A stretch of DNA of 63,734 nucleotides, filler included, from Kipferlia bialata (lineage: Eukaryota), in the NCBI GenBank assembly GCA_003568945.1. It is 5 parts of 5 records of this genome, joined end to end, with 100 filler letters (N's around TTAATTAATTAA, not from the genome) between each part and the next. Parts side by side here need not be neighbours in the genome. Positions count along the whole stretch, not along the records: positions 28,981 to 43,362 come from BDIP01000825.1; 4 more parts are not named here. One strand, written 5' to 3'. Under the pieces are notes generated by a model, which did not search any database, had not been told where the DNA came from, and saw only the letters and a program-made list of their open reading frames with translations. Each line of letters begins with the position of its first letter. Position 1 is the stretch's first letter. Below, in pieces: positions 20,264 to 50,631 of the stretch. The position numbers were made by a program, and so were the translations under genes.

Positions 20264-20296
<33 letters not shown>

Positions 20297-23200: not shown

Positions 23201-26200
23201 CTGCCAGTGGTCTGATGAGACCCATAGTGACTAGGGGCTCAAAGAGGTGCTTGCCCATGGAAGTAAGGGTCTGGTTGCCTACGGTTGGTACATATTCATA
23301 TATATATGCCACCCTATGCTCGTACCCAACTCTAATTTTACAAATGAAAATGGACTCAGTCACGCCCACCTGAGAAGTACTCGACCTTAGACAGGGGTAG
23401 CTGGGATAGGGTACCCCTCCTCTCCGAAGGTGTGAGGGCAGAGTACACAGAGCGGGGCATCTCCTGTTGTCAGTATCCATATAGTAGTATACGTATTGAA
23501 ACATGTACGTGACATGTATGCTGATAGTGACAGGGAGGTAGATCCAAATTGTATAGTGACACACACTCACCAGGATGCCTACATAGCGGATGAGAGCTCC
23601 CACAGTCATACGTGCCCTGAGGCCTAGGGGTTAGAGAGTGTTCAATAGTATCAACACACCACATGCCTTCCTATTATCACACATATACATACGCCCACCC
23701 ACCTCCCGCCGTGAATGTGCCGGGGGGCATGGGGGGGATGTGGGCACTGGTACCCGCACTATGGTGGACGGGGGTGATGGCGAGTCTGGGGTAAGGGCCA
23801 TGGAGATATACCTTGATAAGCTGCACCTCCACCCACCTGTAGAGCAAGAGACTGAACTCCCTGATCCTGGCATACATCAGAGGTTCCACCCCAGGGGGTC
23901 CTCTCCAGAGGGTCTCTCCCTCCCCCTTGAAGTCAGCCTCTGTCTCTCCCTCTGCCTCCCCCTCTGCGTGCATGGGTGTCATCTGGGACATGGAGGAGAG
24001 GGGCACACCTGGGGCATCCAGGCATGGGGTGCTGTCCATGAGGGGGAGGGGTGCTAGTAGGGTCGCAGCCTCGACACCGGCATCCGTCAGAGTGTACATG
24101 CCCAGGACCTGGGGGTTGAGAGAGAGAGAGACAGTATGTATATCATACAGTGGATGTACACTGACCTGCTGCATCGTGCCCTCCTCCACCTGGGTCTTGA
24201 TGATGCGGTCCAGGGTGCGTCTGTCCATGGTCGTCTTGGTCCCACTCATCTTGTCCTGGGCCTGGGGGTCAGAGGGGATATACAAGTATTGGTATGGTCA
24301 CTACGCTGTAGACAACCACTATATGTCTGCCCCACCCTAGCATACTTGACTATCTTGGACAGGGGTCGGGCAGAGGGGGCACACGCAGCTGGGGGTGGGG
24401 TCGGTAAAGGGCGGTTATCTAAGTGTCAAAGAACACATATACACTCACACCCGTACCTAGGTACTGCAGGATGTACCCTGTGAGAAGAACCTTCCTACTC
24501 TGCTTACGAGGGGTTGCTAGCGGTGTGCCACCTGAAATTAGAGAGGTCAGGGGGAAGTGACACAGAGACACACAGGCAATGAATGAATATGGAACACACA
24601 CACACTCATATCCACTCACCCATGCTGGGGGACCCTGGGTAGGACCGGCTGAGTGGTGATGCAGCGTACATCGAGGGAGTGGCTGACATGGCGGGTGAGG
24701 GGTGCATGTGAGCACTGGGAGTGGACAGGGTGGACACAGGCACCATGCCCATATCCATGTCTACATCCCCATGTGTCTGTCTCTGTCTGGCTGGGGTGCT
24801 AGGCACACTGTCAACCACAGCCCCAGGGGGAGGGGGTGGTAGCATTGCCTCGCCATCCATCTCACTCATACCCTCACCCATACCGGACGGGGGTGCAGGG
24901 GGGAGGGTCATGTCAGGCAGGCCCTGCACAGCGGCAGTCAGGTGGTCGGCAGCCACCTAGGGTAAATGGGGGCATTGACAAGAGGCCAACCCTTATTGGG
25001 AACTACAATACCAATAGGAAGAAATAACAGTGCAAATAGCAACTCCTTACCTGAGCCGGAGTCCTGGGCACTGGGATGGACACCGAAGGGTGGAGGGCAA
25101 CCTAGTGGTGAGCAAAGAGGGGTTTAGAGCCAAGATTGTCTAACACATAGAAGTACGATTATTCAACCCGTACCTGTGCCCCTGCAGCAGCTGTCTGGTG
25201 GAATATGGCCGAGTGCAGCCTGTTCATGCTGAGCCCCACCGCCCTGTCCGGCACCTCTAGGTCCCACATGTACTGGTGACGGGGGTGGGGGATGTCAATG
25301 TAGGGCTGGCTCTGGGGGTGAGAGTAGATATGGTGGGGTTGGGAGAAGTATGGGACAATCCCCTAAAGAGTGAGAGTACCTCCGCCAGGTCCCTCCTTGC
25401 CTCCTCCTGGTCGGGTTCCTCAGAGATGTACAGCTCGTGCACAGTCTCCTTGTTCCTAGGGTGTAAGAGAGGTAGATGTATACACATACATGTATATATA
25501 TGGGAGGGGTATATTTGACAAGGGTACGTAGAGTGGAAAGCGAGTATATACATGTGTCTAACCTCAGTTGTTTGTTTCTGATGAGCACCCCGTTCCTCTT
25601 GGAAATGTCATCTGCCACACCAGAGGTCACCTGGGATAAGACAGGGGGCGGGGGTTGTTAGAGCGTGGCAGAAAAGTCAAGAGTCACCAATTCTGAAACA
25701 TATATATAAATAGTACCGCCCTTACCTTCTGCCTCGTGCCCAGGAGTCTTGACACGTCAGATGTCACTATGCCTGGGTATCTGATGACACTGGACTGCAC
25801 AGCTGGGTGCAGGGGGACCCAGGGGGGTAGTCTGAGGGTGAGGGCGGGACAGGTACATTCGATCGGACCACAAGAATGAATATATATATAGAACTACCGT
25901 ACCTACTGACCGATGCGTATCGTATCTTGGAGAGGGGCGTCCACACCGTTTCGGTTCCCTCGTCCGATATGCCCTTCCCAGTCCACCTGGCATGAGAGGG
26001 GGAGTAGATGACTATCTAATGCATATGTAGTGCTGATGCAGGGCTGTACCTCAGGTAGAGTTCCTGGACCCCAGTGCTAGCTGTCACTCCCTGTGATACA
26101 ACGTTCTGGGTCTCCCTCCTCCGAGACTCTCCTGACACGGCACCAAACTGGCAGTGAGGGGGGTAATCTATGTAGAGGGAAGAGAGTGGAGTAACTGAAC

Positions 26201-27725
26201 CCATTGATTCGCGATATATGGTTGGGTAGAGAGTGAAGTGATACCTTGTCCAGCTGCTTCATGAGACCGACCACATAGGACTTCCTCCGCTTGATGATCT
26301 GGGGTCAGCAACCATTGGAGGGGGATCGTGATACATGGCAGTACTACTAGCACTGGTACAAATACCAATGCCACTACGGAAGAGACCTCTCCTAACCTTG
26401 TGATCAGGCCCAGGCACCACTCCATGCCACTTGCCTAGGGGTGAGGAAGGGAGGTAGGGGGTGACTTCATACAAAACAACAACCCAGAGTGTTCAATCAG
26501 TACATACCATTCTGCATGGCACATAGACTGTCCAGGGGAACCCAGCCTGTGCTCTCACCCTGGGGTCATATATGTATGTGATTAATGCCAAGCAATAGCG
26601 CTGTGATAACTATGGTGTCATCCATAACTCTAAGCGAATGGGAGTAGTATATAAATATTACCTTCAGAGCCAGTCTGGCGTGGCTCTTCAGTGTCTCGAT
26701 ACAGGCAGTGTCCACATGGGGGAGGTTGGGGACAGCTCTGCGGTTGGAGACGGGGTTATGGAAGAAGCTTCTCAATACAATATATATAAAGTTCATATAT
26801 ATCTCCCCTACCTAGTGTCTGTCCGTCTCCACCTCATGAGTATCTGCATGTCAGACATCCCCTCCACAGTCGATGCCAGACACACTAGGGTGGTGGCTAC
26901 ACTAGTCGGCTTGGAACCCTGGCAGTTAGAGACACAGTGGAGTATACTATAGATAGACGCTGATACATACTAAAACTGTCGTCTTCCCCCACCTTCGCTG
27001 TCTTCTTGTTTGGCCCCTTGGCCACCACTCTCACACACCGCACACACCCAGTCTTCTCCAGCTGCTTGACCTGTTCTGTTAGATCAAAGGTAAGGAGAGA
27101 AACCCTGTATCATTCTGCATCTGATAACAACAATGACACACGCCCTCCTCACCTGGTAGAACACTGCCTTTGCGTCTGTGGACATCCTCTTGGTCTTGGG
27201 GTCGGGGGAGGCAGCCACGATGGCCTGGTGTGGGAGGAGGAGGGGATGTATTACGATGGAACTATTATTGATAACAGAATCATTAGTATGTCGATATATA
27301 CACCAGCAACCCACCTTGAGCTTTGCTATGAGGTCCATCTGCACTGCACCCATTGTGCCATAGCCTGCTATGACCTCCAGTAGCTGCAGCCCCACTGGTG
27401 TGCCAGAGGTCTCGGACAGACCAAGGGCCCTGGCGTGAGGTAAAAAACTATCACACTAATAATATTATATGCATCATAATTGTGATAGAGGTATCTGACC
27501 ATGTTACATACCTTGTCCTGACGTCTGTCCTGATTGAGAGTGATGGGTCCCACCCCTCCTGGGTCTGGGACACGTCAAGGTTAGTCTGACCGTCTATTAG
27601 GAGGGAGCGGTGACGCTGCCTTACGGTTAGGAGAGACGCCTCAGCGGAGAGAAAGAAGTATACACCTCAATTAGTAGACAGAGAAGAAGAAGGGGAGGGG
27701 GGGGGGGTACACTGTATGTCTCCAC
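17584..27725 (-). CDS. GTF3C1: General transcription factor IIIC subunit 1 (B-block-binding subunit, Tfc3/Sfc3-like); 5' end uncertain
   Basis: B-block-like winged helix RALGL..LQLLEVIAGYGTMGAVQMDLIAKL..DAKAVFYQVKQLEKTG (27430-27040), MDRRTLDRIIKTQVEEG (24228-24180), YARIREFSLLLY, LFEPLVTMGLIRP, PRLFVTE..SW, and C-terminal LAAMVSSTPGIPLAEV (about 18100-18150). Last exon ends DVADVE* at 17584. Confidence 0.75.
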
Positions 27726-27833
27726 TAGGGGTATGAAAGGAAGTGGAGGCTAGCAACCGAAAAATTACGACAATTGTAGCCGAGAGAGAGAGAGAGAGAG
27801 TATATACAAAATATGAAAGGAAACATGTGTATA

Positions 27834-27879
27834 GGGGGGGGGGGGGGGGGGGGGAGGGGGGCCGGGGGGGGGGGGGGGT

Positions 27880-27912
<33 letters not shown>

Positions 27913-27913
27913 C
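27834..27913. repeat. Poly-G tract of about 80 nt (possible assembly junction)
   Basis: Almost pure G run. Similar G or C runs end scaffolds at 14492, 43463 and 63734. Confidence 0.9.
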
Positions 27914-27973
27914 TGGTACTAAGGGTATGTTGTATTAGTGCTACACATAATGGTGAAGGACACTACCCCCCAC

Positions 27974-28230
27974 CTGTCACAACTATCATATCCACCTTGG
28001 CCTCTCTGGATATTGCATCTTCGTACAGTCTCTCTCTAGCCACACTCTCAGGGTTGCTAGCGGTGGGGATATGATATATGATGTGATACTGACAGGCAGG
28101 CACTGTATACACTATCCAATACTCAGACCCACCCAGCCTCCAGATGCATGTCACTCAGTTGCACAATCACATAGGTGTCCGCGGCTCCCCCGTCCCGTCC
28201 ATCGGTCACGCCCTCTGGTGGTGTGTCCAT
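27974..28230 (-). CDS. N-terminal fragment of a calcineurin-like metallophosphoesterase
   Basis: Two exons give MDTPPEG..TYVIVQLSDMHLEAG-NPESVARERLYEDAISREAKVDMIVVTG, with motif I (SDxH) and the approach to motif II (D.IVVTG-D). Later motifs (GNH etc.) not found. Confidence 0.65.
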
Positions 28231-28645
28231 ATTGGTACAGTACACCCTGTGAGAGAGGGGTATCAGTCTGAGTGAGACTCTGACCAGATTCCCACTCCGA
28301 ATCTCAATGTTTTGAGGCCATCGAGTCAAGTCATGACTTTGCCAATGAAGCAATAGAAGTCTAATACCATTCCACTCAACTTCTCAAGCTTTGTGTATTA
28401 CTAGCAACTCAAAACATGGATCGTCTACGACCATTTACTATCTTATAAAAACACTCTCCTATACTGAGGTACAAACACAAAACCATTCCTAATAACACGA
28501 CAAAAGAAGTCAAGGCAAACAGAGCCCTAACTTATACACAGAGAACCTGCCATCCTGTCTCTCAAACAACCATTGCACCCTGCATTGCATACTGAACTGT
28601 ATGCCAGAATGACATGCAAACAGCCTATAGCTATACTGCGAGGCT

Positions 28646-28828
28646 TCACTCCTGGGCGACACCAGCCTCAGCCTCAGCCTCAGCCTCAGCCTCAGCCTCA
28701 GCCTCAACCTCCTTGGACTCTACCTCAGCGACAGGGGCCTCGGCCTCGGCCTCTACCTTTCTGGCCTTCTTGGCCTTCTTGGCCTTGCGGGTCTTGGGCT
28801 TGGCCCCCCACACAGACTGGGACTTGCC
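28646..28828 (-). CDS. Terminal exon of an unknown gene (Lys-rich, then EA-repeat tail)
   Basis: CTCACCCCCAG acceptor, then GKSQSVWGAKPKTRKAKKAKKARKVEAEAEA...VAQE*. Confidence 0.65.
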   Translation of the reverse strand, partial: GKSQSVWGAKPKTRKAKKAKKARKVEAEAEAPVAEVESKEVEAEAEAEAEAEAEAGVAQE

Positions 28829-28880
28829 CTGGGGGTGAGGAGGGGAGGGGGGGGGGGGGGGAGGGAATATACGCACCCCA

Positions 28881-28980
28881 NNNNNNNNNNNNNNNNNNNN
28901 NNNNNNNNNNNNNNNNNNNNNNNNTTAATTAATTAANNNNNNNNNNNNNNNNNNNNNNNNNNNNNNNNNNNNNNNNNNNN
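28881..28980. other. Artificial scaffold-joining linker
   Basis: 44 N + TTAATTAATTAA + 44 N. Confidence 0.99.
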
Positions 28981-31356: not shown

Positions 31357-31357
<1 letters not shown>

Positions 31358-32038
31358 TGACTGAGACTGTGCCTGTGGAGGGTCAGCCCACCCTGACTCC
31401 AGGTACATATATATATATGCATGTTAATAGAGTTTAGTCTGTTCTGACCTCAGTCTCTGCCCTCACTCCATCCACAGATATATATATGCTATATGTATAT
31501 GCTCTATATATATGCTATATATATACATATATACATGTAATTAGAGTTTAGTCTGTTCTGACCTCAGTCTCTGCCCTCACCCCCCTCACTCCATCCACAG
31601 GGGCAGAGATCACACCTGTGCCCCTGCATGAGGAGAGTGTGAGGGATGGTCTAAAGCAAGATGAGGAGGGAGGAGAGACAGTAATTGAGGGGACTGAGAG
31701 CAAGGCAGAGTCTACCACTACTACTCCAGAGATAGAGGGGGAGGGGGAGGGAGCAAGTGATGCAGGACCTAAGGAGAAGAAGGGCAAGGAGGGAGAGAGA
31801 GAGACGAAGGGCAAGGGCAAGGGCAAGGCTAAGCCCAAGGCGAGGCCAGAGCCTGAGCCATACAATGGTAAGTCTTCCCCAATCTTTCTCTCTCTCTCTA
31901 TTCCAGGTATATACGTCTCTCGAAGTTAGTTCCTTTTGTTCTCTCTCTCTCTCTGTTTGTCCTCGCATAGATATCTTACTATCTCGTTCGCCTTCTCTCT
32001 ATACATATGCATCTGTCTGTGTCTACTCCCCTACTTAG

Positions 32039-32076
<38 letters not shown>

Positions 32077-32407
32077 ACGTACACATACCATGTTAAAGCA
32101 TTATATGTCTCAATGTATATGTACTAATGGCTTGCTATATGTATATGTATTTGTGGTAACTGGAGTACAAGAGTGTTGATACTTCATCTCTACCTCTGAC
32201 TCAAGGGGTATCTCTCTCTCTCTTTATCTCTCGCTCGCTCGCTCGCTCGCTCTCTCTCTCTATATATATTCACATACACTCACTCTTGCTGTCTGTCTCT
32301 CCCTTTATGAACCTTTCTCTCTCTACATATACATGTGTTCTCACTCTAGGTGTCTGTCTCTCCCTGTATGACAAGGGAGTCTCTCTCTCCCCCCCCCCCT
32401 CTCTCCC

Positions 32408-32440
<33 letters not shown>

Positions 32441-33367
32441 ATCTCCATTTATGTCTCTTACTTCCAGGTGTCTGTCTCTCCCTGTATGACAAGGGTGTGT
32501 CACTCCCTCTCCCTCCCTCTCCCTCCCTCTCTCTCTCTCTCTATATATATATATCTTACCCTAGGTGTGTGTCTCTCCCTGTATGACAAGGGTGTATCAC
32601 TGCGTAAGAAGAGAGAGGCTGAGGCTGCGGAGAAGAGAGCAAAGGCCCTAAAGGAGGAGCTAGAGGTAAATATGTATCGGGGGAGAGAGATAAAGCGAGA
32701 GCAAAGGTCCTGAAGGAGCTAGTGGCATCCTCCCTCCTTATTATTATATCATTATTATATAATTATTATATTACTATAGTATTACTATTATTGTCTTTCA
32801 CTATTCACTATTCACTATTCACTGACCACAGGCCATCACCAGGCACCCAGACATCTATATCTGCATCCATATTCCACCATGTTTAGGATATATATATATG
32901 AATGTGGTATATATATTGTATATATACTAGATCTAACCACAGGCCATCACCAGACGTCCTGACATCTCAGTCTCGTCTAGAACAGTGCCCCCAATGCCAA
33001 GGGAGGCAGGGGTGGAATTCAGTACGCGAAATAGTGTATATATATATACGCGAATTAGTGTATAATGCCATATATATGTACCCCCAATGCCAAGGGAGGC
33101 AGGAGTGGAATTCAGTACGCGAATTAGTGTATTTACACTTCTATTCATTTCATCTGATGTTATGTATAATAGCCAATTACACTTACCCTAGGTGACTACT
33201 GCTATGCCTGGCGGGAGGAGGCAGACCACAAGATGGAGGCAGCTAGAGTGGAGAGGTATGTATGTATATATATTTATATATATATATGGAGAGAGAGAGA
33301 GAGAGAGAGAGAGGCAGACCACAAGATGGAGGCAGCTAGGGTGGAATAGAGAGACAGTATATATATA

Positions 33368-33400
<33 letters not shown>

Positions 33401-34121
33401 GCAGACCACAAGATGGAGGTAGCTAGGGTGGAGAGGTATGCGTTGGATATGTGATACATGTTCACAACTCAATACGTGTAATAACACCCATATTCAATAG
33501 TGTATACCTCCCTCTTCAGTGTTACCTCTGGATCTGTCTCTCTCTCTCTCTCCCTACACACTCACTCTATACCTATGAGTCCATATCTCCCTCTGCACCC
33601 TTAACTCTCTCTCTCTCTCCCCCTCTACACCCTTATTGCCAGGGACAGAGAGGCCGAGGTCCAGGACATGAAGGCCATGAAGAAGGTATATATACAAATT
33701 CATTTGTTTCTTTCCGTAGTATATTCAGTCTCCTTGGATCCACCTCCCTTTTGGTATATATATCCATTTATATATTTATATGTATATATATATATGTGTG
33801 TGTGTGTATATATTATCCATTATGTATATATGTGTATTCTCTACATGACTGTATTGTGTACACCCTTCTCCTCTCTCATATCCCAGGGTGGTAAGTTTGT
33901 GAGTGGCCGCTCAGCACGCATCCTGAAGGTATGGTACTGTATGATGATAGTATATATGTGGAGTACGAGTTATACTATATGTCTATATTTATATGCCTAA
34001 CCATAGGAGATGAAGGCCGAGGGCCGCCAGAGGGCACCCTTATACAAGGCACCCAAGGAGAAGGGGGAGGAGGGACTGGGGACATCTAGGATAGGTGTGT
34101 ATATACATATATGTATATACT

Positions 34122-34179
<58 letters not shown>

Positions 34180-34258
34180 TACTAGTTACAAGGCACCCAA
34201 GGAGAAGGCAGGGGAGGGGATTGGTACTACTAGGATACATATATATATATATTTGTAA

Positions 34259-34290
<32 letters not shown>

Positions 34291-35222
34291 TGGAGACTGG
34301 TACAAGCCACCCACGCAGAGAGGGGGTCTTTCAACGGTATATATGGAGACACATATATATTATTGTATATATTCGTGTGTGTGCGTGTGTGTTTGGAATT
34401 ACAAGCATAAATTAGATAGTATTGTGTTCTTAGAATGTGCCCCTTACACCCAGGCCAAGAAGGTAGATTGTCTATATATATATATATATATACAGTACCA
34501 GAAGTGTATATATGTTTATTATTCCTATGTTAACACCCAGGCACTCCCAAGGTCAAGAAGACACCCAAGAAGGGAATCACTTAGTATATACACAGTTTCT
34601 GTATTATATATATAGATTATCTATATACAGATTCATATACTCATATTAGGCCCCCCCAAGGCCAAGAAGACACCCAAGAAGGCAGAGGCTGACAAGGGCA
34701 GGAAGAGTGGCCTAGAGGTGCATGACAGACTGTACAGACTGGGCATGGCAAAGTGAGTCACATTCACATATGGACAGCATATACAGTGCCGCCAAGGAGC
34801 ATCAGGTATGGATAAACATATATATTTCTATTTATTATTTTTTTATACATACATATTATTTTCCACATATTCACATATTCACACCAGGTAGACAGTAGCA
34901 TATACATGAATATATATGAATGTATATGAATGTAACTACCCCCTTATTGTCAGGACAGGCAGAGAGAGAGGGCTGCCCAGCTGGATGCCCAGTGCACATT
35001 CAGTCCCACCATCAACTCAAACAGTGCGGAACTGGCTCAGGTACTATGGTATATACATATATGTACATTTGTTTGTATATATACATTTGTTTACGTATAT
35101 TTAAAAATATAGACATATTTTTTATATACACATTGTATATATATGTACACATTCAGTCCCACCATCAACTCAAACAGTGCGGAGTTAGCACAGGTATTGA
35201 GTAGAGTATATATACACGTCGG

Positions 35223-35269
<47 letters not shown>

Positions 35270-35300
35270 TTCTCACCCCCAGCGCAGTGCTGCCCGTCGG

Positions 35301-35333
<33 letters not shown>

Positions 35334-35632
35334 TACCCCAAGCGCAGTGCTGCACGTCGGTCTCTGCTACAGACCGAGGGGGAGAGGCGGAGGCTGCTGA
35401 GAGAGGTAGGTGTTATATATTTTCAGTGTATAAATATTGTATTATAGTATAGTAGTATTACTATGTTACTGAGGGAGGTAGGTGTCGTATATATATATAG
35501 ACTTGGCAAATATTCATGTTTTGTGGCTTTGTGTTTACCAGAGATTCACATACATATATATATGTGTGTGTAATTGTATCTAACCTTTCAGCAGAGTCTG
35601 CAGGCCTCCCCCTCTGCTGACAGTACCTAGTG

Positions 35633-35674
<42 letters not shown>

Positions 35675-36852
35675 TATTCCCTTGCATATATATTATATAT
35701 ACCATATAGGCATCTAATTTTTCAGCAGAGCCTCCAGGCCTCCCCCTCCGCTGAGAGTGAGCCTCAGGACAATGGGTCAGAGACAGAGACACAGAGGGAG
35801 AGAGGGAGAGAGAGACGGTCAGAGACAGAGTCACACAGAGAGAGAGACTCTGTGAGAGAGGTACCCAACACCGTTAGCAAATATATACGTTTATAGTGTT
35901 ATGTCTATGTATAGCATATATATATATGTCCCTTACCACTAGGGCATGTCCTCCAAGGCCTCCTTCGACCAGTTCATGTATCCCAAATATGGACATATAT
36001 GTATATATGTGTAGTATTCCTCATATATTTGTATATACTCACCCCTCAGGGCATGAGTAGCAAGGCCTCCTTTGACCAGTTCATGTCAAGGAACAGAAGG
36101 CACATACAGAAGCAGGTATATATAGTATATATAGTATGCTGTATCGATAATTAATATTGTTATTATTCGTATATATGTCGTCTGTTTTACAGGAACAGAC
36201 CAATATCAGTATCATTAGTAGTGAAGTTCAATACACACTATTACAAGTAGTTTGCGAGTGAATGTACATATGTCTAAATTATAGGAATGGACCCGCAAGT
36301 TCAACCAGCACCAGAAGGAACAGGAGGAGGAGAGGACATGCACCTTTACCCCTATGCTGGTGGCCAGGTATATATGTACATGTAGTTAGTATATATATAT
36401 ATATATACATATATATGATATATTAGTATGTTAGTGGAACAGGAGGAGGAGAGGACATGCACATTCACACCGATGCTGGTGACTAAGTTAGACACTATGT
36501 ATAATTATAGTACGTATCAAATATAGTATTTTACCTCACACTAGGGACCCCTCCACCTCCCAGCCATCCAGTGCCAGGGGCAGGACAAGAGACAGGGAGA
36601 TGTCACCACGGACCACACCCAACACATCAAGGTATGTATATATATATATATATATATACTCTATTATGTCATATACGTGTCACCACGGACCACCCCCAAC
36701 ACCTCTGGGTCATCTAGGGGGACACCCAACACATCAAGGTATATAGTTATAGTTATGTGTATATACTTGTGAATACTAATATATACTGGCATATACTAGT
36801 ATATGCGTATGTACTTGTATCTCTCGCCCCTTACACCTCCAGGGTCACAGTC

Positions 36853-36883
<31 letters not shown>

Positions 36884-38130
36884 GTTACTCATTTAGATTT
36901 CTATTTACACGCATATCCAAGTATATGTATACAATATATCATTCCCTACTAATGTATAGGGGCACCCCCACCAGTGCCAGAGGTAGTGCTAGGAGTAGTA
37001 TATATGTATGTACTTATATGTATACGCATTATTATATATATATATATATATCATTCCCTACTTATATACAGGGGCACCCCCACCAGTGCCAGAGGTAGTG
37101 CTAGGAGGACCCCTGTCTCTAGCAGAGACCACCTAGCCTCATCGGGCAGGACAACAGGTGAGGATTTGAGTCACTCTATTTCCCAATCACATTTTCTACT
37201 CCCATATGTGCTTATATATATATATATATAATATTATATATGCTTATATTATTATTATAATATTATATATATATATATTATATTATATATATATACATGT
37301 AAGTATACATCTCTAATACCAGATCAGCTCCCCACCACCCAGCATGGAAGGCCTCTCTCTCTCTCTCTCTCTCTCTCCATATATATATGTATGAATATAT
37401 ATATATGTATGTATATATATCTGTGAACTCTCACCCCAGACCAGCTACCCACTACGCAGCACGGCAGTCCTAGAACCACTCAGTCAGAGAGGGAGAGAGA
37501 GAGGAGGAGAGAGAGGGAGAGAGAGAGGGGCTCTCCTCGCAGTATGGCACTGTCAGGTATATACTATAGTATATGTTATATAGTATATACTTCTACTATT
37601 TACTGAGTAGCCTCGCAGCGTGGCACAGACAGGTAAATACTATATAGTGTATTTAATGTAGTGTATTTAATACTATTTGCTAATCATGTACTGAATAGTT
37701 TACTCTCTTCTCCTGGACCCCTATATGAAAGTATGTGTTTGACCCCAGGGAGAGAGAGTGAGAAGAAGAAGAGGGCTGCTGCGCTGAAGGCTCAGGTATC
37801 CAGACAACTGTTATATACATGGTCAACTACTATATTGAATGATTCTACGCAAGCCCATGCTAGGGTCCCCCCGCCCCCTACCCCGCTCTCTCTCTTAGAT
37901 ATATTTATATACATATATAAATATGGTCCTGTGATATGCTGCACTGAAGGCCCAGGTATATATATATATATATCCAAGCGGCGGTCATTGTTATACACTA
38001 CATTGAATATGTATGTTCCCTTTTCCATTTACAAACGCCCTATAGCTAACCGTAGTGCTCTATATATCCTACTCACTCTCTCTCTCCCCCACTCTCTCTA
38101 ACACCAGCGTCTCTATTAGCAGGGCCTGGC

Positions 38131-38164
<34 letters not shown>

Positions 38165-38229
38165 GTGTGTATATATACATACAGTAGTGTCAGATACTCA
38201 TACCAGCGTCTCTATGAGCAGGGTCTTGC

Positions 38230-38271
<42 letters not shown>

Positions 38272-39950
38272 GTGTGTGTATATATACATACAGTAGTGTC
38301 AGATACTGATATCAGCGCCTCTATGAGCAGGGTCTTGCCTCTCTCTCTCTCTCTCTATATATATATGTGTGTAACTAACCGTAGCGCCTCTATGAGCAGG
38401 GCCTGGCCTCTCTGTCCAAGAGGGACTCTCTCTCTCTCTCTGTCTCTCAATATATATTCTTATATATATAACTAATACCAGCGTCTCTATGAGCAGGGCC
38501 TGGCNNNNNNNNNNNNNNNNNNNNNNNNNNNNNNNNNNNNNNTATGAGCAGGGCCTGGCCTCTCTGTCCAAGAGGGACTCTCTCTCTCTCTCTCTCTGTC
38601 TCTATATATATATGTGTGTATAACTAACCCTTAGCGCCTCTATGAGCAGGGCCTGGCCTCTCTGTCCAAGAGGGACGAACTATCTAGACGGAGGGAGATG
38701 GAGAGGTATGTATATATATTTCTTTATGTATGTATGTATAAATAGAGAGAGAGAGATAGAGAGACAGTAGACTAGCTCTCCAGACGGAGGGAGATGGAGA
38801 GGTATGGTTACACATGTATATATATATAGATGTATAGAGAGAGAGAGGGAGAGAGATATGAGCTGTCCAGACGGAGGGAGATGGAGAGGTATGTATACAC
38901 ATATGTATTTACATAGATATGTTCTTGTATGTTATTGAGAGCGAGAGATCAGTGGTGGACGCACTCTCTAGACGGAGGGAGATGGAGAGGTATGATGATG
39001 TGTTTGGGTTTAAGTATATGCGTATATATCAATACACAAGATATATGTATGTGTATATACATCTAGATTACTCTATATCATTCAAAGATTCTTCGATGTA
39101 TCTAACCCCCATCTATCTATATAAATAGTTGTTAAATAGTTGTTAAATAGTTATAAATAGTTGTCTGACTCTCAGGAGTGCACATGTATGTATTCACTCT
39201 CTATATTAATATGCTATTGTATGTATCTAACTCTTAGGGAGATGCAGCTGCAGGAGTGCACATTCACTATATATATATATATATATGTATATATATACAT
39301 ATTATAGTATGTATATATATATGTTCTATGTATGTATCTAACTCCCAGGGAGATGCAGCTGCAGGAGTGCACATTCACACCAGACACACAGCGGTCGAGG
39401 AGGAGGTATATATACACATATTATGTATACGCATCTATGTATATACTGGATATATATGTGTCCATATGTGTATACATTCACACCAGACACACGGCGGTCT
39501 CGGAGGAGTACTAATGTATATGTGGTGTATGTATATTGTATAATTGTATTTATTCATACATTTTTATATTCCCAGAAGGAGGTATGACGGAGAACTGTCA
39601 GTACCGATGTATCTTTGGATAGTCATACATATGTATATATATATTCCTTATTATTGTATAACCTCTTATCCTAGCCTGGCCTCCCTCCGCAGTCCAGTCT
39701 CTAGTGGCCATAGAGACCTATATACATTAGTATATGCTATATGCACTATATATACTATGATATATGGTCTTACCACAGTATGGCTTCTCTCCGCAGTCCA
39801 GTCTCTGGTGGCCACAGAGACAGAGAGAGAGAGAGAGACAGAGATATGGACTACAGTCAGTCCATGTCCCCCAGACCCATGTCACTGGCACAGCAGTTCA
39901 GAGACAGTAGGTATATATAATGTATATATATATAGTACATAGTATATATG

Positions 39951-39981
<31 letters not shown>

Positions 39982-40304
39982 TCCATGTCCCCCAGACCAA
40001 TGTCACTGGCACAGCAGTTCAGAGATAGTAGGTATATACACACTTTATGTATAGTATATTTGTATAGAGAGAGAGAGAGAGAAAGAGAAAGAGCTAATGT
40101 CCCCCCTGGCACAGCAGTTCAGAGATAGTAGGTTTGTAGAGATAGCGTAGTTCATATAGTGTATTATCTGCATATCTCACGACAGGTTCTCTCTCTCCCC
40201 CTCTCTCTACAACGTAGTATCTCTCTCTCTCTCTATACATCTCTGTCTCTTACTCCAGGTTCTCCCCCTCCATGCTGCAGACAGGCCCTGCCTACATAGT
40301 CAGG

Positions 40305-40347
<43 letters not shown>

Positions 40348-41426
40348 ACACACACTTGTACTGTTTGCTAATAGCCAGCCCCGGAGAGAGGGACAGGGAG
40401 AGAGAGAGAGACAGGGAGAGAGACGTGGAGAGAGAGAGAGAGAGACAGTGGCAGCTCCAGGCTGCTCTTGAGTACCCTTCCCCTCTCCAAGGTTTGAAAG
40501 ACCCTTATTCACCCTCTCTACACCCTTATACCCCCCCTCTATTAATACCCAGCCTCCCAGCTAGGCCCTCGGTCCCCGCTGTCATACTCCACTGGACCAG
40601 CAGGTATAGAGTAGTATCATTACCTACACTATTAGAATATTTAATAATTTCTATATACTATGCTATTGTGAATACTGTACCCTCTCATACTCCACTGGAC
40701 CAGGAGGTATAGAGATATATGAGTGTGTATATATAGTATTTCTGATACCCAGGCTCCGGAGTTGGCAGTCCCTATGGCAGCACCTATGGGAGGGAGAGAG
40801 AGGCAGAGAGGGAGAGGGAGAGGGAGAGGGAGACTGACCCGGACAGTATAGAGGGCCTGTGCTCACTGGTGTCCAGCCTCAGTGGCACATTGGTACCCAG
40901 CAGGTATGTATATATATACATGTATGTAATAGGACATATACTGGATATTCCCTCTGAGAATATTCTGAGAGTATTATTCAGATGCTTGTTCTTGTTTGCT
41001 GCCCCCTTATGCCTCAGGAGCAGAAGCATGCAGGGATCCCCCAGCTATGCCACAGACAGCCACATGGAGTACTCTCCTCACACCCTACGCTCTCCCCCCT
41101 CTAGCGCCGCCTTTGGGTTCTCGTACAGTAAGGGTGTAGAGGGAGAGAGAGAGAGAGTGTGTGTGGACAGGCCAGAGTCTGCTGAGAGGGTGAGACCAGT
41201 CCCCTCTCCCGCTGTAGTGCCTTTAGTTAAGGGTGTAGAGGGAGAGAGAGAGAGAGAGTCTGCTAATTCCCCCCTTGAAGGCATAGCCCTAGAGCCAGTG
41301 GCTGAGATTGAGGGTGTAGAGTGTGGAAAGGTAGACCCAGAGACAGAGAGAGAGAGAGAGAGGATGGAGACCCTTAAGGCCAATCTGGAGAGGGAGAGAG
41401 AGCTCGAGAGAGAGCTGGGCCTCTAG
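31357..41426 (+). CDS. Large low-complexity protein with CTFxP and RLY repeats (putative cytoskeletal/microtubule-associated)
   Basis: Starts MTETVPVEGQPTLTP. Exons encode SLYDKGVSLRKKRE (32575), VHDRLYRLG (34718), QCTFSPTIN (34990), TCTFTPML (36335), RLYEQG (38635) and QECTFTPDT (39360). Last exon 41018-41426 ends ERELGL*. Confidence 0.75.
38107..38990 (+). repeat. Array of exon-start copies (acceptor + RLYEQGLA) and exon-end copies (LSRRREMER + GT) around exon 38635-38705
   Basis: AG-CG(C/T)CTCTATGAGCAGGG near 38107, 38206, 38315, 38385, 38481 and 38543. AGACGGAGGGAGATGGAGAG-GT ends near 38705, 38801, 38888 and 38989. Confidence 0.92.
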
Positions 41427-42424: not shown

Positions 42425-43237
42425 CTGAGGCAGACGCTGAGGTACGAGGATATGGATCCATGGCAGTATTATGTATCTCCCTTCTTCTGCCCCCCCCCCC
42501 TTCCTCTTAAGTAATATAGTAAACTAGGATGAGAAGAACTCGGACTTATATACTGTCCAACCCCCAGTACCCAGATGAGGACGAGAGAGATAGAGAGAGG
42601 GATGCTGTGGATGATGCCTATGCAGGTGCCCAGGCCGTGGCTGGGTTCTTTGGGGAACCATCAGATAGAGTACGATATTATTGTATCTAAATTGCTCTCT
42701 CTATATGTATATCTCACAGCCGTGGCTGGGTTCTTTGGGGAGCCAAGTGATAAGGTATGGATAGTATAGTATATGAATCACCCCCCTCTATCTCTCTCTC
42801 TCTCTCTCTCCCACTCAGACTAAGCTGATGCCAAAGTCCTTACACTCAACTCGCTCTCTCGCTCTCCCCCCTCTATATAGATATATGTATATATAGCTTG
42901 TCCTATAGGCCGACGCCGAAGAGTTATCGGCCCCTTGCCACTGTGTATGAGACTCTCTCTCTCTCTCTCTCTCTCTCCCCCCCCCCCTCTCTGTATAGAT
43001 ATACGTATACACATCTTACCCCAGGCCGATGCAGAGGTGCTGCGTTCCCTAGCCACTGTGTATGAGGATCTCTCTCTCTATCTCTCTCCCCCTCTCTAAT
43101 ACTAGGCTGATGCTGAGGTCCTTAGGTCCCTGGCCACTGTGTATGAGGGCATAGTCAGCACAGTCACAGAGGGCGGGGAGGGGGAGGGGGAGAGAGAGAG
43201 AGACGTGCTGGACAGGGTGGACCAGCTCTGTGTGCAG
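41982..43237 (+). CDS. Unknown acidic protein, 3'-truncated
   Basis: ATG at 41982. Exon 41982-42320, then DEDERDRERDAVDDAYAG..GFFGEPSD and ADAEVLRSLATVYEG...DRVDQLCVQ (43106-43237). Confidence 0.65.
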
Positions 43238-43362: not shown

Positions 43363-43462
43363 NNNNNNNNNNNNNNNNNNNNNNNNNNNNNNNNNNNNNN
43401 NNNNNNTTAATTAATTAANNNNNNNNNNNNNNNNNNNNNNNNNNNNNNNNNNNNNNNNNNNN
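43363..43462. other. Artificial scaffold-joining linker
   Basis: 44 N + TTAATTAATTAA + 44 N. Confidence 0.99.
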
Positions 43463-43512
<50 letters not shown>

Positions 43513-43575
43513 GTTACCCTTTGAGAGACGGAACATATATCTACCCTCCCGCTCATCAATCCACTGATATCCCGT

Positions 43576-43732
43576 CTATTGGATCTTGAGGACCTCAATC
43601 TCGAACACCAGGGCTGCCTTGGGGGGGATGCTGAACCCGGGGTGGCCGGCAGCACCGTAGGCAGCCTGAGGGTGAGAGGGGTTCATCAAGGTAACAAGTA
43701 TATTATCCACTCCACAGTTATGGTGAGCTTGA

Positions 43733-43765
<33 letters not shown>

Positions 43766-44297
43766 ATGATACCTGCCAGGGGATGGCCAGCCTGGCCCTC
43801 TCCCCGAGCTGCATGGTGGCCACTCCCTCGTCCCACCCCTTGATGACACCACCCACACCGGCCTGGTAGGTGAAGGGCTGGGGGCCGTTCTCGGCTGAGA
43901 AGAGGAACCCACTGGGCTTGTGAGTGGACCAGATTGCCTGCTTGTCAGTATCATCAGTGCCAAAACATACCATCACTATCAGTATATAGATATATCCCAT
44001 AAATGCATATACCTCTAAATATACATTATCTGTGGATCAGCTAGCAGTGTTATCAGAGGATAACAATCAGTGTCAGCATCAGCACACAATATATACAGAA
44101 TAATAGTATATAATAGGTATTTAATAGGTATATATGTATTTGGATATGAATATGTATATGTATCTGAATATGTATCAGAATATGTATACCTTGTTGTTCT
44201 CGGCAAGGTAGAGGTCCGCGGCCACAGTCACGGTGCTGCCCCTGGAGGGACAGGCGCCGGAGCCAGCCTTGAGGACAGTCTTGGTGAAGGAGGCCAT
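43576..44297 (-). CDS. FKBP12: FKBP-type peptidyl-prolyl cis-trans isomerase (FKBP12-like), 3 exons, 120 aa
   Basis: Exons 44297-44190, 43937-43773 and 43665-43576, all phase 0: MASFTKTVLKAGSGACPSRGSTVTV...AIWSTH...QPFTYQAGVGGVIKGWDEGVATMQLGERARLAIPWQAAYGAAGHPGFSIPPKAALVFEIEVLKIQ*. Confidence 0.95.
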
Positions 44298-44585
44298 TGG
44301 GTAGTCAAGAGAGAGGGGAGATGCGTCAGAGACAAGGTAATTGAAACAGTAAATTAGACCTAGAAGAACTTAGTTAAGTTTGAACGCAGACCGTTTTACG
44401 ATTTCATCGTTATCGCGTAGACTGTCTACATATATACTGCCAAGTTGAGATTACTAACCATGTAGTAGCAATTAATAGTGATAAGGAAGCGAGGAGAAAG
44501 TAACTCAGACACAGACGGAATCTATTACGTATTGTGTGAAAGCTTTGCACTCGAACAAAATTGAGACTACAGCACTGCCTCTCCC

Positions 44586-47500
44586 TCAGAGGTATGGGTT
44601 GCGGAGCGATGTGATGTACCCCCTCTCTGTCCTGGGCCAGGTGTACATGACGGGCATATCACTCCTGACTATGCACACATTGGGGTCACCCACTACACTG
44701 TGCAGGGAGAGGTGGGGGAGCACAAAGTCAGGCTCCAGCATGGTCTGGGGTGAGATATATGGGAATTGACAATATATAGTATACTTGTGGTATGTAATGG
44801 GTACCTGAGCGATGTGTGATCTGAACACTCCTCTGTACAGTACATTGGTAGTCTCTAATGGTCCCAGGCCACTGTCCTTGGAGGCAGTGGGGGTGGAGGG
44901 GGGCTGGTCCTCAGCCTCAGGGGGTGGGACACGCTGAGACCTAGATATCAGTTGAAGTAAAAGATACATAATACTTACATCTATAAATGTAGACACCTGA
45001 CTGCTGATATGAGCACGTTGACCCCCTTGAGCAGTGCCAGTCCTATGGGGTCTGGGGGGATGGAGAAGGGCCTCCCCTGGTATGCGTCCAGTCCACCCTG
45101 GGCATGGACAGGGTCAGAGGGCAGCATGGGGACAGCACTCGTGATGCACAGGGGACCCAGACCGGTCTGGCAGCCCTCACCTACAAGCATGGACCCTGAC
45201 ATGAGGAATATGAACGGTCACTAGTAAGAGTATCATGAGATTGTGTACCTAGCGGGTATGGGTTGAGATCCCCTGTCTGTGTCTGCCTGATGTCAAACAG
45301 ACACACACGCCCATCGGAGCCACCTGAGGGTGTGAGGGGATATGTATATACACAAACAGGAAGAAAATAACCCCATTAGCGAGGCTCATGGACATGGATA
45401 GGTGAGAGAGTACCTGTGATGAATGAGCCGCTCTGACTGGGCACCCCATGGCAGCATGTGGCCACACCCTTATGGGCACCGAAGTACAGGACAGGGCCAG
45501 AAGTGACTCTGGGGGGTGAGAGGAGAAGGAGACAACCACACAGATACTAACACCGTGCTTATGAGACTGTATCCACCCACCGTCTGTCCAGTACTGCCAG
45601 CACTGCCACCAACGCTGAACATATATATATGTGTACCACCCACCTTCTGTCTAGCACTGCCACCCCCCCATTTCTGAGTGTGGCCACTGTGCAGTGAGGG
45701 AGGGTGTCACCCAGGGGACAGAGGGCAGTGGCTGCATCGGGGAGGGGTGTCTTGCCGGACAGTGCTGTCTGCATCGGGGTGGATGCCTCACTGCCATCTG
45801 CACCGAAGGAGAGGTAGGACACACCACAGGATACGGTGCTGCTCACTGTGCCCTGGCCCCTGCCCTGCCGGGGGTGTCTGTCCCTGGGGTAAGAAAGGCG
45901 TCATTGTATACGCGAAATATATGTACTCATATACAATCAGAAACACCAAACACTAGTAAACACTTACACAAATTGCCCCCCATATATGAATATAACTGTT
46001 GAATACCTGCGATTGGAGCCCCTGCCCCTGCCGGACTTAACAACCTGACAGTCAGAGAGAGAGATTGACAGAACGACAGCCAGAGATATACACCCCCTTA
46101 CCCGTGTCCTCTGTATCCCTCCTGCCACTGCGTACACCATGCCCTCCCCCTGTATCCCACTGGGAGATAGGGGTGCCACCGCTGTCAGGGCCTGTGTGTC
46201 CGGCATGATGTGCTGGCCCAGCACATCCATCCCAGGTGGGGTGGACCCCGCTGCCCCAGTGGTGTCAGAGGGGGGTGTATCAGACCCAGAGTGGGACTGG
46301 TACACAACCAGGCCGCACCGGGAGGATGAACCCCCGTGCCCCTTCCCCTTCTCCCTCAGGGGACCACCCACCACACTGTACATACTAGTAGTGCCTGTGC
46401 CATAGGGCATGGCCTTGCCACTCGGGTGGGGGAGAGGGGGGTGGGTGACGACATGCCCTGACAGGACAGAGGGCGTCATGGAAGAGAGGGGGGTGGGGAG
46501 GCGGGAGAGCCTGGGGGCGGGAAGGGTACCCGGGGTACTGTTTTGGGTGGGAAGGGCGGCCTTCTGGTGGAAGACAGTGCCACTGGGGTTAGGGTCAGTA
46601 TATATGATGTGGTACTGAGGTCTATGTACACCTCCATACCCTGATATGCATATGGCGCTGCTTGTACTGGGTGCCACCAGCCACGACTGCTGGGCTGCCC
46701 CTGCACCCCCGATCAAGGCTGGGTGGAAGGGGGTGTCGCGGAACAGAACGTGCTCAGACCTAGGAGTGAGAGTATTTACATACCAAAGAACACTAGCTAA
46801 ACAATAGGATATGCATATATATGGATCTAGTATGAGAGGGCACTCACATGATGGTCTTGAGGGGTGCCCTTGGTGGCTGGCACACCGGGGTACGTGCCGA
46901 GGGTGTGCCTGCTGAGGACTGGCCCTGGTTGGACCAGGCCCACTCCTCCCTCCTGGGCGCCCTGCCCCTCCCACTCCCTCTCTCCCTGCCTACATTAGTC
47001 TCCGCCTGCTTCTTCAGTGCCTGGTGCAGCCTCCGTGTCCTGTACTGCATGTCTGACTCATGCACTATCGACAGGTCCGTGGCTGAGAGGGGTGTGGTTG
47101 TGACAGGTGTGCATGTGGAGCCTGGTCCCATGTGGGTGCTGCGTCTGATGGGTATGGACTCAAGAGCAGTGTCCTGGAGGGCAGCCCTGGCGTTCTCCAG
47201 CAGCTCCTCCTCATCGTCTGATGCAACGCAGGGCAGGTCGAGGAGGGAATCATCTGTGTACTGGTCACCCATCTCATCACTCACAGCCTCAGGGCCAGAG
47301 GGGCACATGGTGGCTATAGGTGATGTATCTGTGGAAGGGGTGGTCTCTGCCTGCACTGGGATGGTCTCTGCACCTTGAGTGCCAGGCACAGACCCAGCCT
47401 CAGTCCCAGCATGGGTGGGTAGGGATGGTACAGCAGTCTCTACACCCTCAGTGATTGGTGCAGTCTCCCTGACTGCCTCAGTCTCAGTAGAGCACACTGT

Positions 47501-50260
47501 CTCTGGCTCAACCTTCTCAGTCTCCCCCACCTCACCACTGACGCCACCCTCAGCCACATCACACACATCAGGGGAAGATGATGTGTCCATACCTGCACTC
47601 TCAGTCAGAAGGGCAGCAGGCTCTGCATCTGCCGCCTTATTATCCTCTCTCTCCCTCTCAGTGAGTGCATCGGCATCTGACACGACACCAGTGGAGAGGG
47701 GGGTAGGGACAGGAGCTGAGACGGCCTCAGTGCTAACACCCAGTCCAGGGGGCACATCTGCCTCAGCCTCTCCATCTGCATCTACCTCTCCTACTGTCTC
47801 TGTGGGTGATACCACTGCCTGTCCCAGACCAGGGGGCACATCGGCATCATCGGCACCCCCAGTCACCGGAGGAGCAGCTGGAGTGGCAGTGACCTCTGTA
47901 GTGGTAGTGGCCACGTCAGGTGTCTCCCCCCATGCCCAAGTGTCTCCATCCTTGGCCACCCTCTCAGCTGGCACTCCCTTGGCCATGCCCTCAGCCGCTA
48001 TCTCTGCAATCTTCTTGGGTGCATTACACATGGGTCTGCTTCCCTTCATCACGGCTGTCGGCATTGTCAGACCACCACTCTCATCCTCACTGGTATCAGC
48101 GACCATCCCGTAGTACTTGGCCCTCGCCCTCTCCCGCCCACTCAGCTGCTTGGACCGTATGCTGTGAATGCTGGGGTTCAGGGTGAAGCCCCGCTCGGCT
48201 ATCAGTCTGAGACGGGTGGTGAGGGAGGACGTGGCTGCAGGGTCTGTGCCAGAGGCAGAGGGTGCAGGGGAGGGTGGGACAGTGGGTGAGGGGGTGGACA
48301 TGGGGGCAGAGGGGGGAGACTCAGAGGCAGGGCACAGCTCCACACCCTCACTGCTAGGAGTGACGGTAACCTCAGTGCTCTCAGTGCTAAAACTGGGGCT
48401 GTCTGAGGAGTCCACGTCCGGAGAGGGATCCTCTGTCTCCACTGCTACCTTCTCTCCCTCCCCCTCCCTATCTGCAAAGACTGAGGCAGAGGGAGGTGGG
48501 GCTGCCACCCCCCGCTCCACACCCAGGCTCTGGTACAGCCACTCGATGACACAGGGGTCTAGGACAACCCCCGTCCACACATCATTCACCCTCTCCACCC
48601 TCTCTCCCTCTGTAGGTACTGGCTCTACCCTGCCTGCAGTGTCAACAGCACCATACCTGGGGTGGGGGGGGGGGGGGTTATAGACAGAGAGAATACATAG
48701 GTAGAAGATATCCTGTCAAATAGAGGATGAGAGCAACAATACTAGGCCTATACATAAAAACACTGATGCACTATACCTGCACTGTGCGGCCTCTGCTGCC
48801 TGGCACAGCTCCCTCTCATATATANNNNNNNNNNNNNNNNNNNNNNNNNNNNNNNNNNNNNNNNNNCCTCTCATATATAACAGTGTTCACATTCATATAT
48901 GCATGTATGTATACTATACTAACCTGCACTGTGCGGCCTCTGCTGCCTGGCACAGCTCTCTCTCATATATATCAGCGTTCATATATATACACATACGTAT
49001 ATTATATACAAAACTATACCTGCACTGTGCTGCCTCAGCTGCCTGGCACAGCTCTCTCTCGTCAAAGTGCTGGGACGGGGAGAGAGACCGGATGTACTGG
49101 GTATTCAGATCAGGCCCTACTCCTAGGGTCAGAGGGATTATGGCTTATAGTAGCACTGAAGTATCTCAATCAATACTAATTGATGTATATATATATCCCC
49201 CCGTACCTGTGTCATACATTGCCCTGAGCAGTATGAGCCCTGCCCTCTCATGACTGACACTGGAGAGCAGGTTGTACACGACTAGCAGGAGGAGGGTGGG
49301 GGAGAGAGAGGCATTGCCAATCACGTGGGTGGGGGGGTCCGCCATGACCTGGGGATGAGTGGAGTATATAGGGTAGAGTATACATGTATGCATGTACATA
49401 CCCTGACTATCCCACACAGCACTGCACTGGTCCCTGCTGTCCTGAGTATGCCAGCTGTGTCCCAGGCAGTGGGGGTCACAGAGGTGAACATGTCCCTGGG
49501 AGGTGAGAGGGTAGGGGGGAGAGAGAGAGAGAGAGAGAGATAGTATCACAGAGGGGAGGGAGGGAGGGGGTGGGCACTGACCTGAGCGCATGGCTGAACA
49601 ATGAGTGGGACATGTTGATCCTGAGCATGTGGGCCAGGGTGTCCATGAACACAGACAGGGGGGCCTGGGGGTGAGTGACAATGCAAGGGTCAGAATACAC
49701 CAAAAGATACAACAGGATAGAAATATGCGGTGAAGGGGGGGGGGGGGTTGGTGTGTACATCAAGCACCAAATCTGTGACTCAATTCAGAGCCACCCTCTC
49801 CATAAGTGCATATATAACCATACACCCATGCATGGGACCATACCTCTGTGGCCAGTGACACCAGGAATGGCAGTGCCGCCCTTGCAGCCTGGGGACACTC
49901 GTCAGAGGGGGAGGAGTGCGTGGTGGCTCTGAAGAGTCCATCGTACAGCACAGCACGTGTGGCACCAGTCGCTCTAACACCAGTCTCACCCTCACCCGCC
50001 CTCTCTCTCTCCCTCCCAACCTCCTCCACAAGAGTATGAGTATCACCCCCCATGGGGCTGTCCCTCTGCTCCACCTCAGCAGTGCCACTCTCCCTAGCCC
50101 CTAGAGACACCCCCTCCAGCCCCTCTAGATGTCTCTCCAGATGCGGAATGGGAGATGAGGCAACACCACCTGCCCCACTGGGTACGTCTCTGTCTCTGTC
50201 TGTGTCTGAGGGACTACAACCTTCCCTCTTCTCCTTCCCCCCTTGCTGCTCACCCTTCAT
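44586..50260 (-). CDS. Large unknown protein: helical N-terminal part, long disordered middle, possible degenerate beta-propeller C-terminus
   Basis: ATG at 50260, spliceable exons including a 1.8-kb exon (46848-48656), stop at 44586 (SLRNPYL*). C-terminal beta-rich blocks such as LTAVAPL..VYAVAGG and ATALCPL..VATLRNGGVAVLDRR look WD40-like (weak). Confidence 0.65.
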
Positions 50261-50631
50261 CGAGAGCAGCCCCTAGTCAGTCGCCTCGGCCTTTCGAAGC
50301 TGCACTACTAATGCCGCAAAGTATGGAGTGTGCTGCAACCTCAGTCTGATAGGGTCAAAGTGCAGTGTGTGTGTTGTTAAGTTACAGACGGTCTTCTTGG
50401 TGCTCTGACTCTCTTGCAATGTGCACTGCTCACTCTGCTCCGCTTGAGGCACACGAAGAAGGGCCGGTGGGAATGGTCTGGGAGAATGAAGATCCGAGTG
50501 GGAATCGAACCCATGTCAACAGGTTTTTGAATCTGCTCCTTCTCACAACACAATACACTAGAATATGATTCCCCACTATAAACACGGTATTTCCGAGTCT
50601 ATTGAACTAGCGTCACATTGTCTTCTCCTTC

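Follow-up and report, generated by a model that had tools for sequence, protein, structure and literature searches.

Kipferlia bialata is a free-living protist and a relative of Giardia. We examined a window of 63.7 kb of its genome, composed of five contigs of at most ~14.4 kb each joined by N spacers, and every count given below is for this window only. The N runs, which carry a 12-nt TA spacer, are at 14392-14491, 28881-28980, 43363-43462, and 57832-57931, and a feature reading across these spacers is invalid. The genes discussed here are listed below, where a copy is a piece of an exon end that is repeated in the adjoining intron.

31357-41426, plus strand: host gene of the two focal copy-exon pairs; ~26 exons, 38 intronic copies; charged low-complexity protein with repeated CTFxP motifs
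296-14251, minus strand: another copy-rich gene; a single open frame over 34 exons, 61 copies
52351-57476, plus strand: copy-bearing gene, 11 copies
58159-63526, plus strand: copy-bearing gene, 20 copies; N-terminal zinc finger with a weak zf-UBP hit under the curated cut-off
14553-17104, minus strand: adenylate/guanylate cyclase gene KIPB_004024, one of at least 11 Kipferlia paralogues
43576-44279, minus strand: FKBP-type prolyl isomerase gene (Pfam PF00254, E 2e-9)

The K. bialata genome was reported as 51 Mb with 124,912 GT-AG introns, from a short-read assembly with a k-mer signal of diploidy (PMC5874029), and the string 'duplicat' is absent from the main text of that paper. Parts of PMC6679479 describe a reduced spliceosome in K. 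bialata and an absence of snRNA candidates. Open papers yielded no account of the copies described here in Kipferlia.

We defined 201 exons across eight regions and aligned each to its own flanking introns. Because the automatic gene finder swallowed copy fragments, we manually assembled the exons of six genes into open chains, while exons in 14492-28880 and 43512-51450 came from the automatic finder with score and length cut-offs. Exon 15037-15192 was 100% identical to KIPB_004024, and the exon calls agreed with the public protein for 13/13 exons. Within the host gene, in-frame closure of the junction near 34752-34954 needs a ~25-nt intron or an earlier donor. Pfam gave zero hits for all five host gene exon pieces scanned, and protein searches with exons 35726-35860 and 709-1020 had zero matches, returning neither a paralogue nor an annotated host-gene product, which is weak evidence. 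The last gene (58159-63526) encodes a peptide repeat, EEEREDEESSEDWERERDRGKRG..YGQ.YNIG, twice on separate exons (60709-60762 and 59250-59333). A tRNA-like 3' half was seen by eye at 50490-50545 on the minus strand; ARAGORN made zero tRNA calls in the window.

The two focal pairs lie in the middle of the host gene, with these neighbours:

35726-35860, plus strand: upstream exon of the host gene, with its own acceptor-type copy at 35592-35624
35930-35979, plus strand: acceptor-type copy; branch-like motif and AG (35930-35942), then 37 nt matching the start of the next exon, carrying TCC TCC
36050-36115, plus strand: exon GMSSKASFDQFMSRNRRHIQKQ with AGT AGC, predicted to be the used exon from the open AG/GT chain
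36285-36367, plus strand: exon EWTRKFNQHQKEQEEERTCTFTPMLVA, likewise the predicted used exon from the open AG/GT chain
36436-36488, plus strand: donor-type copy; last 51 nt of exon 36285-36367 plus GT, with four silent and two amino-acid changes
36545-36631, plus strand: downstream exon of the host gene, with donor-type copies at 36678-36705 and 36722-36738

Re-alignment placed both pairs, and the two adjacent TCC/AGY switches of the first, where the first-pass annotation had described them. Copy 35943-35979 sits 107 nt upstream of exon 36050-36115 behind its own branch-like motif and AG, and differs from exon positions 36050-36086 at 6/37 nt. All six differences are silent, five in Ser-Ser (TCC TCC vs AGT AGC) and one in Phe (TTC vs TTT), and both sequences encode GMSSKASFDQFM. 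Copy 36436-36488, with its own terminal GT, lies 119 nt 3' of the segment of exon 36285-36367 that it matches and differs from 36317-36369 at 7/53 nt. Four of these differences are silent and fall in TFTP as first described, although the copy also carries Ala>Thr (2 nt) and a change of the last exon base (Arg>Lys) that had been left unmentioned. Five exons across 35343-36631 form one open AG/GT chain when the copies are skipped, so the reading frame is set independently of the pairs, and this chain points to the exon rather than the copy as the member that would be spliced in. Separately built contigs from a DNA run, which may be the assembly's own source, matched the window with 0 differences at 35863-36378, spanning copy 35943-35979 and both exons, and at 36425-36624, covering copy 36436-36488. 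A run presumed to be RNA gave no match at 35690-37190, a result that carries no information on expression.

Two further pieces flank these pairs. The donor-side copy at 36678-36738 reads SPRTTPNTSGSSRGTPNTS and exceeds the used exon end in length, as would follow if the used exon had lost one of two TPNTS repeats. A degenerate acceptor-type piece 5' of exon 36285 (36193-36250; GAA CAG ACC start, containing AAG TTC AAT) fell under the alignment cut-off and is possibly an older copy.

Six of six silent differences would arise with a probability of ~7e-5 beside a purified exon if the copy were neutral (60,000 simulations), a value for a pair chosen post hoc. The window-wide test therefore carries more weight; the switch had been presented as the strongest single case against neutral decay, a place that belongs instead to the window-wide count and the array patterns described below.

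At an alignment score of at least 26, we found 143 intronic exon-end copies around the 201 exons, a density of 2.2 per kb, and 0/1206 shuffles reached a score of 26. A copy comprises 20-50 nt of exon end, and the whole unit of exon end, splice site, and intron DNA has a median length of 107 nt. As tandem duplication over a splice site demands, 142/143 copies hold either 5' exon sequence upstream of the exon or 3' exon sequence downstream of it, and AG or GT is in register in 115 of the 137 ungapped, splice-proximal copies. These 115 ungapped in-register pairs (59 acceptor, 56 donor) were retained; the 28 removed had no AG (16), had no GT (6), were gapped (5), or lay far from the splice site (1). 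Stops occur in 4/115 copies. Single copies make up 55/79 arrays, intron flanks are alignable above background in 19/78 pairs, and breakpoints run into TA/CT repeats. A 38-nt piece common to another pair had ~2x the depth of its neighbours in the DNA run. The observation holds, lies far outside chance, and belongs to a broad anomaly.

Copies were unevenly spread. They occur at 37/68 exon ends in the gene of the first contig and 24/52 in the host gene, compared with 3/140 in the second contig. The regions 14492-28880 and 43512-51450 are near copy-free (4/188 exon ends); compared with the copy-rich genes, their introns are shorter (median 82-88 nt) and more GC-rich at the ends. Recombination or constraint may differ between regions. 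Near-exact duplications that include whole intron parts were seen at 31415-31480/31530-31600 and at 10500-10740, and thus fresh units can be exact.

Copy-exon differences followed the codon structure of the exons. Reading frames were derived from the exon chains, independently of the pairs. Across 115 pairs and 1251 codons there were 209 silent and 91 amino-acid differences, and mismatches at codon positions 1, 2, and 3 numbered 76/1331, 51/1328, and 245/1315 sites. The full set of 143 copies without extension gave 238 silent vs 101 amino-acid differences, and the 28 dropped copies alone 40 vs 29. For an independent set of one nearest pair per exon end (n = 79), pS was 0.241, pN 0.045, dS 0.29, and dN/dS 0.16 (95% CI 0.12-0.21), whereas a dead copy next to an exon under purifying selection should give ~0.5. 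The silent share was 0.68 (138/204 differing codons) against a null mean of 0.37 and maximum of 0.48 in 1000 runs with a purified exon and a neutral copy. The earlier claim that neutral decay of a dead copy fails is thus borne out, and the copies bear a history of protein-level constraint. Third-position differences had no direction and no AT bias. Silent differences increased with distance from the breakpoint (p = 0.005), and amino-acid changes were no rarer near the splice site; the trend is mild, and does not amount to a sharp gradient in which every difference adjoins the splice site. The farthest copy was often the most diverged.

TCN/AGY switches occurred at 5/81 Ser codons common to copy and exon, between copies otherwise ~89% identical. 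Models in which two functional lineages (dN/dS 0.15) diverge by single steps gave a mean of at most 0.05 switches, even when a quarter of the patches were set to d = 2, and runs of adjacent silent changes numbered 40 against 19-27 in two-lineage models. The count therefore stands far above those models, and long divergence alone, which the first-pass annotation had taken as the source of the switches, falls well short of producing them. The earlier claim that a switch has to go through a non-Ser intermediate likewise lacks support as stated: parts of PMC7954308 argue for instant multi-base change as a route for serine codon-set switches, and slippage between Ser-Ser codons would be another. 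Two-step Thr/Cys paths in a huge population, multi-base events, and Ser-Ser slippage could each contribute. Raw switches ran from TCN to AGY in 8/9 cases, which suggests a codon drift in that direction, but these cases are non-independent and third positions show no direction.

Arrays with several copies allowed copies to be compared with one another:

38108-38989, plus strand: array at exon 38635-38705; six acceptor-type and three donor-type copies, with all four combinations of two silent variants
12665-13380, minus strand: five donor-type copies repeating every ~126 nt; mismatches at 11-26% in the intron parts and at 1-3 of 45 nt in the exon parts
5446-5875, minus strand: three donor-type copies; every codon difference silent, four-gamete pattern
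6991-7387, minus strand: three acceptor-type copies; silent variants alternate, and one codon is TCN, ACT (Thr), or AGT by copy, with the alignment shifted there

Between a copy and the next copy there were 65 silent and 24 amino-acid codon differences. Changes private to copies other than the farthest were silent in 15 cases vs 5 not (12 vs 5 minus one doubtful array; 7 vs 4 with the most conservative outgroup), which argues against decayed snapshots of the exon, since these predict mostly amino-acid changes. Along 23 arrays, 28/101 silent steps reverted to an earlier state, against a null of 9.1 and a maximum of 20 in 3000 runs. Variants common to at least two copies were silent in 11/11 cases. 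Four gametes were seen in 3/6 site pairs among copies, a pattern that copy-copy exchange or repeated mutation could also yield, and the recurrence of silent variants could alternatively come from few free or mutable silent sites. The copies behave like draws from one recombining pool of variants that had been filtered at the protein level beforehand. Three versions of ADAEVLRSLATVYE were also observed at 42909-43067, the farthest having a one-base insertion and two amino-acid changes beyond the silent ones.

The splice signals of the copies were as strong as the used ones, and 56/59 acceptor copies had a branch-like motif. A good partner site nearby was missing for 49/59 acceptor and 47/56 donor copies, in-frame inclusion was feasible for 4 acceptor and 5 donor copies (9/115), and a common AG|GT switch point was found in 7/115 pairs. 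Acceptors without copies scored 11.9 bits; in 12 arrays the farthest copy scored 10.1, inner copies 6.4, and the used site 5.8. Acceptor AT content climbed in the same order (no copies, farthest, inner, used), and donor scores had no comparable trend. The direction at acceptors favours extra change in newly added units.

We propose, with a probability of about 0.5, that the copies are partial tandem duplications whose sequence was drawn by recombination from the pool of working alleles in a very diverse population. A unit would be born by slippage or end-joining at TA/CT repeats, either from the sister chromatid or directly from the homologue. The spliceosome would pick the site nearest the exon body, leaving the copy untranslated and tolerated. 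While the duplication was polymorphic, crossover and conversion with single-copy alleles would refresh the copy with recently translated sequence, so that copy and exon would differ as two alleles do, and copies would be lost before they decayed far. Silent divergence near 0.3 among alleles or hybridising lineages would be required. According to parts of PMC8516963, all examined fornicates are without Rad51A and keep two Dmc1 paralogues, metamonads are without NHEJ, and mismatch repair is present; Dmc1 stabilises mismatched joints (PMC6719624, in part). Loss of Rad51A and NHEJ with retention of a mismatch-tolerant Dmc1 would favour such exchanges.

A toy forward simulation (N = 200, one run per setting, clean copy loss assumed) with theta 0.5, r/mu 3-15, and no cost gave pS 0.27-0.33 and pN/pS 0.19-0.25, compared with the observed 0.24 and 0.19. 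With theta 0.05 or zero recombination, pS was <0.10 and pN/pS near 0.6. Adding a fitness cost gave a ratio of 0.34, and without clean loss copies fixed and then decayed. The simulation produced no gradient. In this toy model, drawing copies from an allele pool is sufficient to give the observed ratios.

Several observations sit poorly with an allele pool. The required diversity of ~0.3 tops the cited eukaryote record of silent diversity, ~0.2 (PMC9305300), and intron flanks alignable in just 19/78 pairs also count against it. Excess Ser switches and excess adjacent changes are misfits, and weaker, AT-rich used acceptors are unpredicted by a symmetric pool. At a 90% cut-off, the DNA run had no alternative letters across 1.5 kb that would indicate a second allele, and no exon-anchored end among the six loose ends listed of nine. 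Only 6/75 complete BUSCOs were duplicated, and 11/11 cyclase proteins fell in single-member clusters, with no near-identical twin among the output examined. The strain must therefore be largely homozygous under the allele-pool reading. Two metagenome scans did not find environmental Kipferlia sequence.

It is possible, though doubtful, that Kipferlia continually swaps exon ends for silently recoded ones by mismatch-tolerant or error-prone template switching, the old end passing into the intron; each intron would then keep past exon ends in dated order, multi-base silent jumps like that from TCC TCC to AGT AGC would be commonplace, and plain extrapolation would give, to an order of magnitude, ~100,000 relics genome-wide. 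As a burst, in which a new unit made by very error-prone or template-switching synthesis becomes the used end through its position, persists only with a functional protein and splice site, and leaves the copy as the frozen former end, we regard recoding as unlikely. The polarity of the acceptor series keeps this explanation alive, with the farthest copy near normal and inner and used sites weak and AT-rich; the clustered multi-base changes, the excess of Ser switches, the mostly unrelated intron flanks, and breakpoints that enter TA/CT repeats also speak for it. Random errors, however, should neither revert (28 vs 9.1) nor show four gametes; inner copies have private silent changes, and third positions have no AT bias. 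At ~25% error per site, we estimate that well under 1% of events would be viable.

Direct selection on copies that are still used, through unusual splicing or frequent DNA rearrangement in some cells, we consider decidedly unlikely. The strength of their splice signals, the scarcity of stops (4/115), and the ~4x greater conservation of exon parts over intron parts in the five-copy array are all as expected of sequence in use, but 96/115 copies are without a good partner site, few could be included in frame, and the common AG|GT point is rare. The joined form of the DNA was not seen in DNA-run contigs, which drop rare forms, and short tandem peptide repeats were found in 0/11 annotated cyclase proteins, which are products of other genes and so weigh little.

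Selection might instead act indirectly in a clonal lineage, where the copy is exposed, whenever it collapses into or converts with the exon, often enough for damage to be purged with no need for other alleles. This account would explain the intact splice sites and the variants common among copies, and would read identical stretches as exchange points. We nevertheless think it improbable: exchange of sufficient speed would wipe out the differences or the array, conversion alone would spread amino-acid changes among dead copies, yet the common variants are silent in 11/11 cases, and amino-acid changes are no rarer by the splice site. It would probably also require a very large population.

Plain duplication followed by neutral decay, in which the exon itself evolves the silent differences and copies are snapshots of it, is simple and fits the alignable introns of some recent arrays and the frequent divergence of the farthest copy, but we hold it very improbable given the silent share of 0.68 where the null peaks at 0.48, the mostly silent copy-copy differences, and the pN/pS of 0.6 in the recombination-free simulation. 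Tandem joining of haplotypes or paralogues in assembly is barely credible, even though the genome is repeat-rich, was described as diploid and was assembled from short reads (PMC5874029), and the DNA run may be the source of that assembly: the upstream/downstream placement rule fails in only one of 143 copies, the 38-nt piece has about doubled depth, and the separately built contig across copy 35943-35979 and its exon speaks against the misplaced paralogue exon that had been named as a way out.

Untranslated intronic DNA is expected not to evolve like a gene, yet more than 100 intronic pieces in 64 kb do. If they are relics of an allele pool, silent diversity near 0.3, which equals or exceeds the cited eukaryote record, is preserved in a single genome from a lineage reported to be without Rad51A and NHEJ. 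This would bear on Lewontin's paradox (the diversity ceiling) and on sex among the free-living relatives of Giardia. Should the copies be in use, or have been made by recoding bursts, the mechanism would be new. The units are a candidate cause of long, repeat-rich introns in some genes, and the copy-exon pairs are a large ready sample for how serine codon sets switch. Existing data types suffice to distinguish all of these readings.

Mutually exclusive duplicated exons are whole exons with both splice sites and dN/dS well below 1. The Kipferlia copies resemble them as tandem exon-like copies with low dN/dS, but consist of exon ends, carry a single splice site, and for the most part have no way into mRNA in frame; with 96/115 copies lacking a partner site and 9/115 includable in frame, this class was ruled out. 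Intron gain by tandem AG|GT duplication (PMC3265369, in part) is likewise a local duplication hidden from the protein by splicing. In Kipferlia an existing intron grows and none is created, and intron gain was ruled out with a new donor and acceptor in only 7/115 pairs. The TCN/AGY exchanges at retained Ser are like known serine codon-set switches (Averof 2000; Rogozin 2016; both as cited in PMC7954308), unlike which they occur at 5/81 Ser codons between ~89% identical copies. As in hyperdiverse eukaryotes such as Schizophyllum commune (~0.2; PMC9305300, in part), where allelic differences are many, mostly silent, and finely recombined, silent divergence is high (dS 0.29), but here it is read from tandem copies in one genome and not from a population.

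Minisatellites whose first monomer spans an exon-intron boundary are known from human F7 IVS7 (37 bp), LMNB2 (100 bp), PDGF (81 bp), and CBS (PMC1557585, in part), and there too the unit carries an exon end and splice site into the intron. In these minisatellites the exon-nearest site is used while the spare sites, although competent, mostly stay silent, as would be the case in Kipferlia. As described in that source, they comprise a few loci with near-identical monomers and donor sites, whereas the Kipferlia copies are of acceptor and donor types, at 2.2 per kb, mostly in 1-3 copies, their intron parts unrelated and their divergence codon-aware. A splice-spanning tandem unit is present in Kipferlia, with 115/143 copies ungapped and AG/GT in register. 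Near-identical monomers are not the rule, as 55/79 arrays have a single copy and intron parts align in 19/78 pairs, but a few arrays do fit that description, e.g., 12665-13380. Together with the added protein-level constraint, this sets the Kipferlia copies apart from known boundary-spanning minisatellites.
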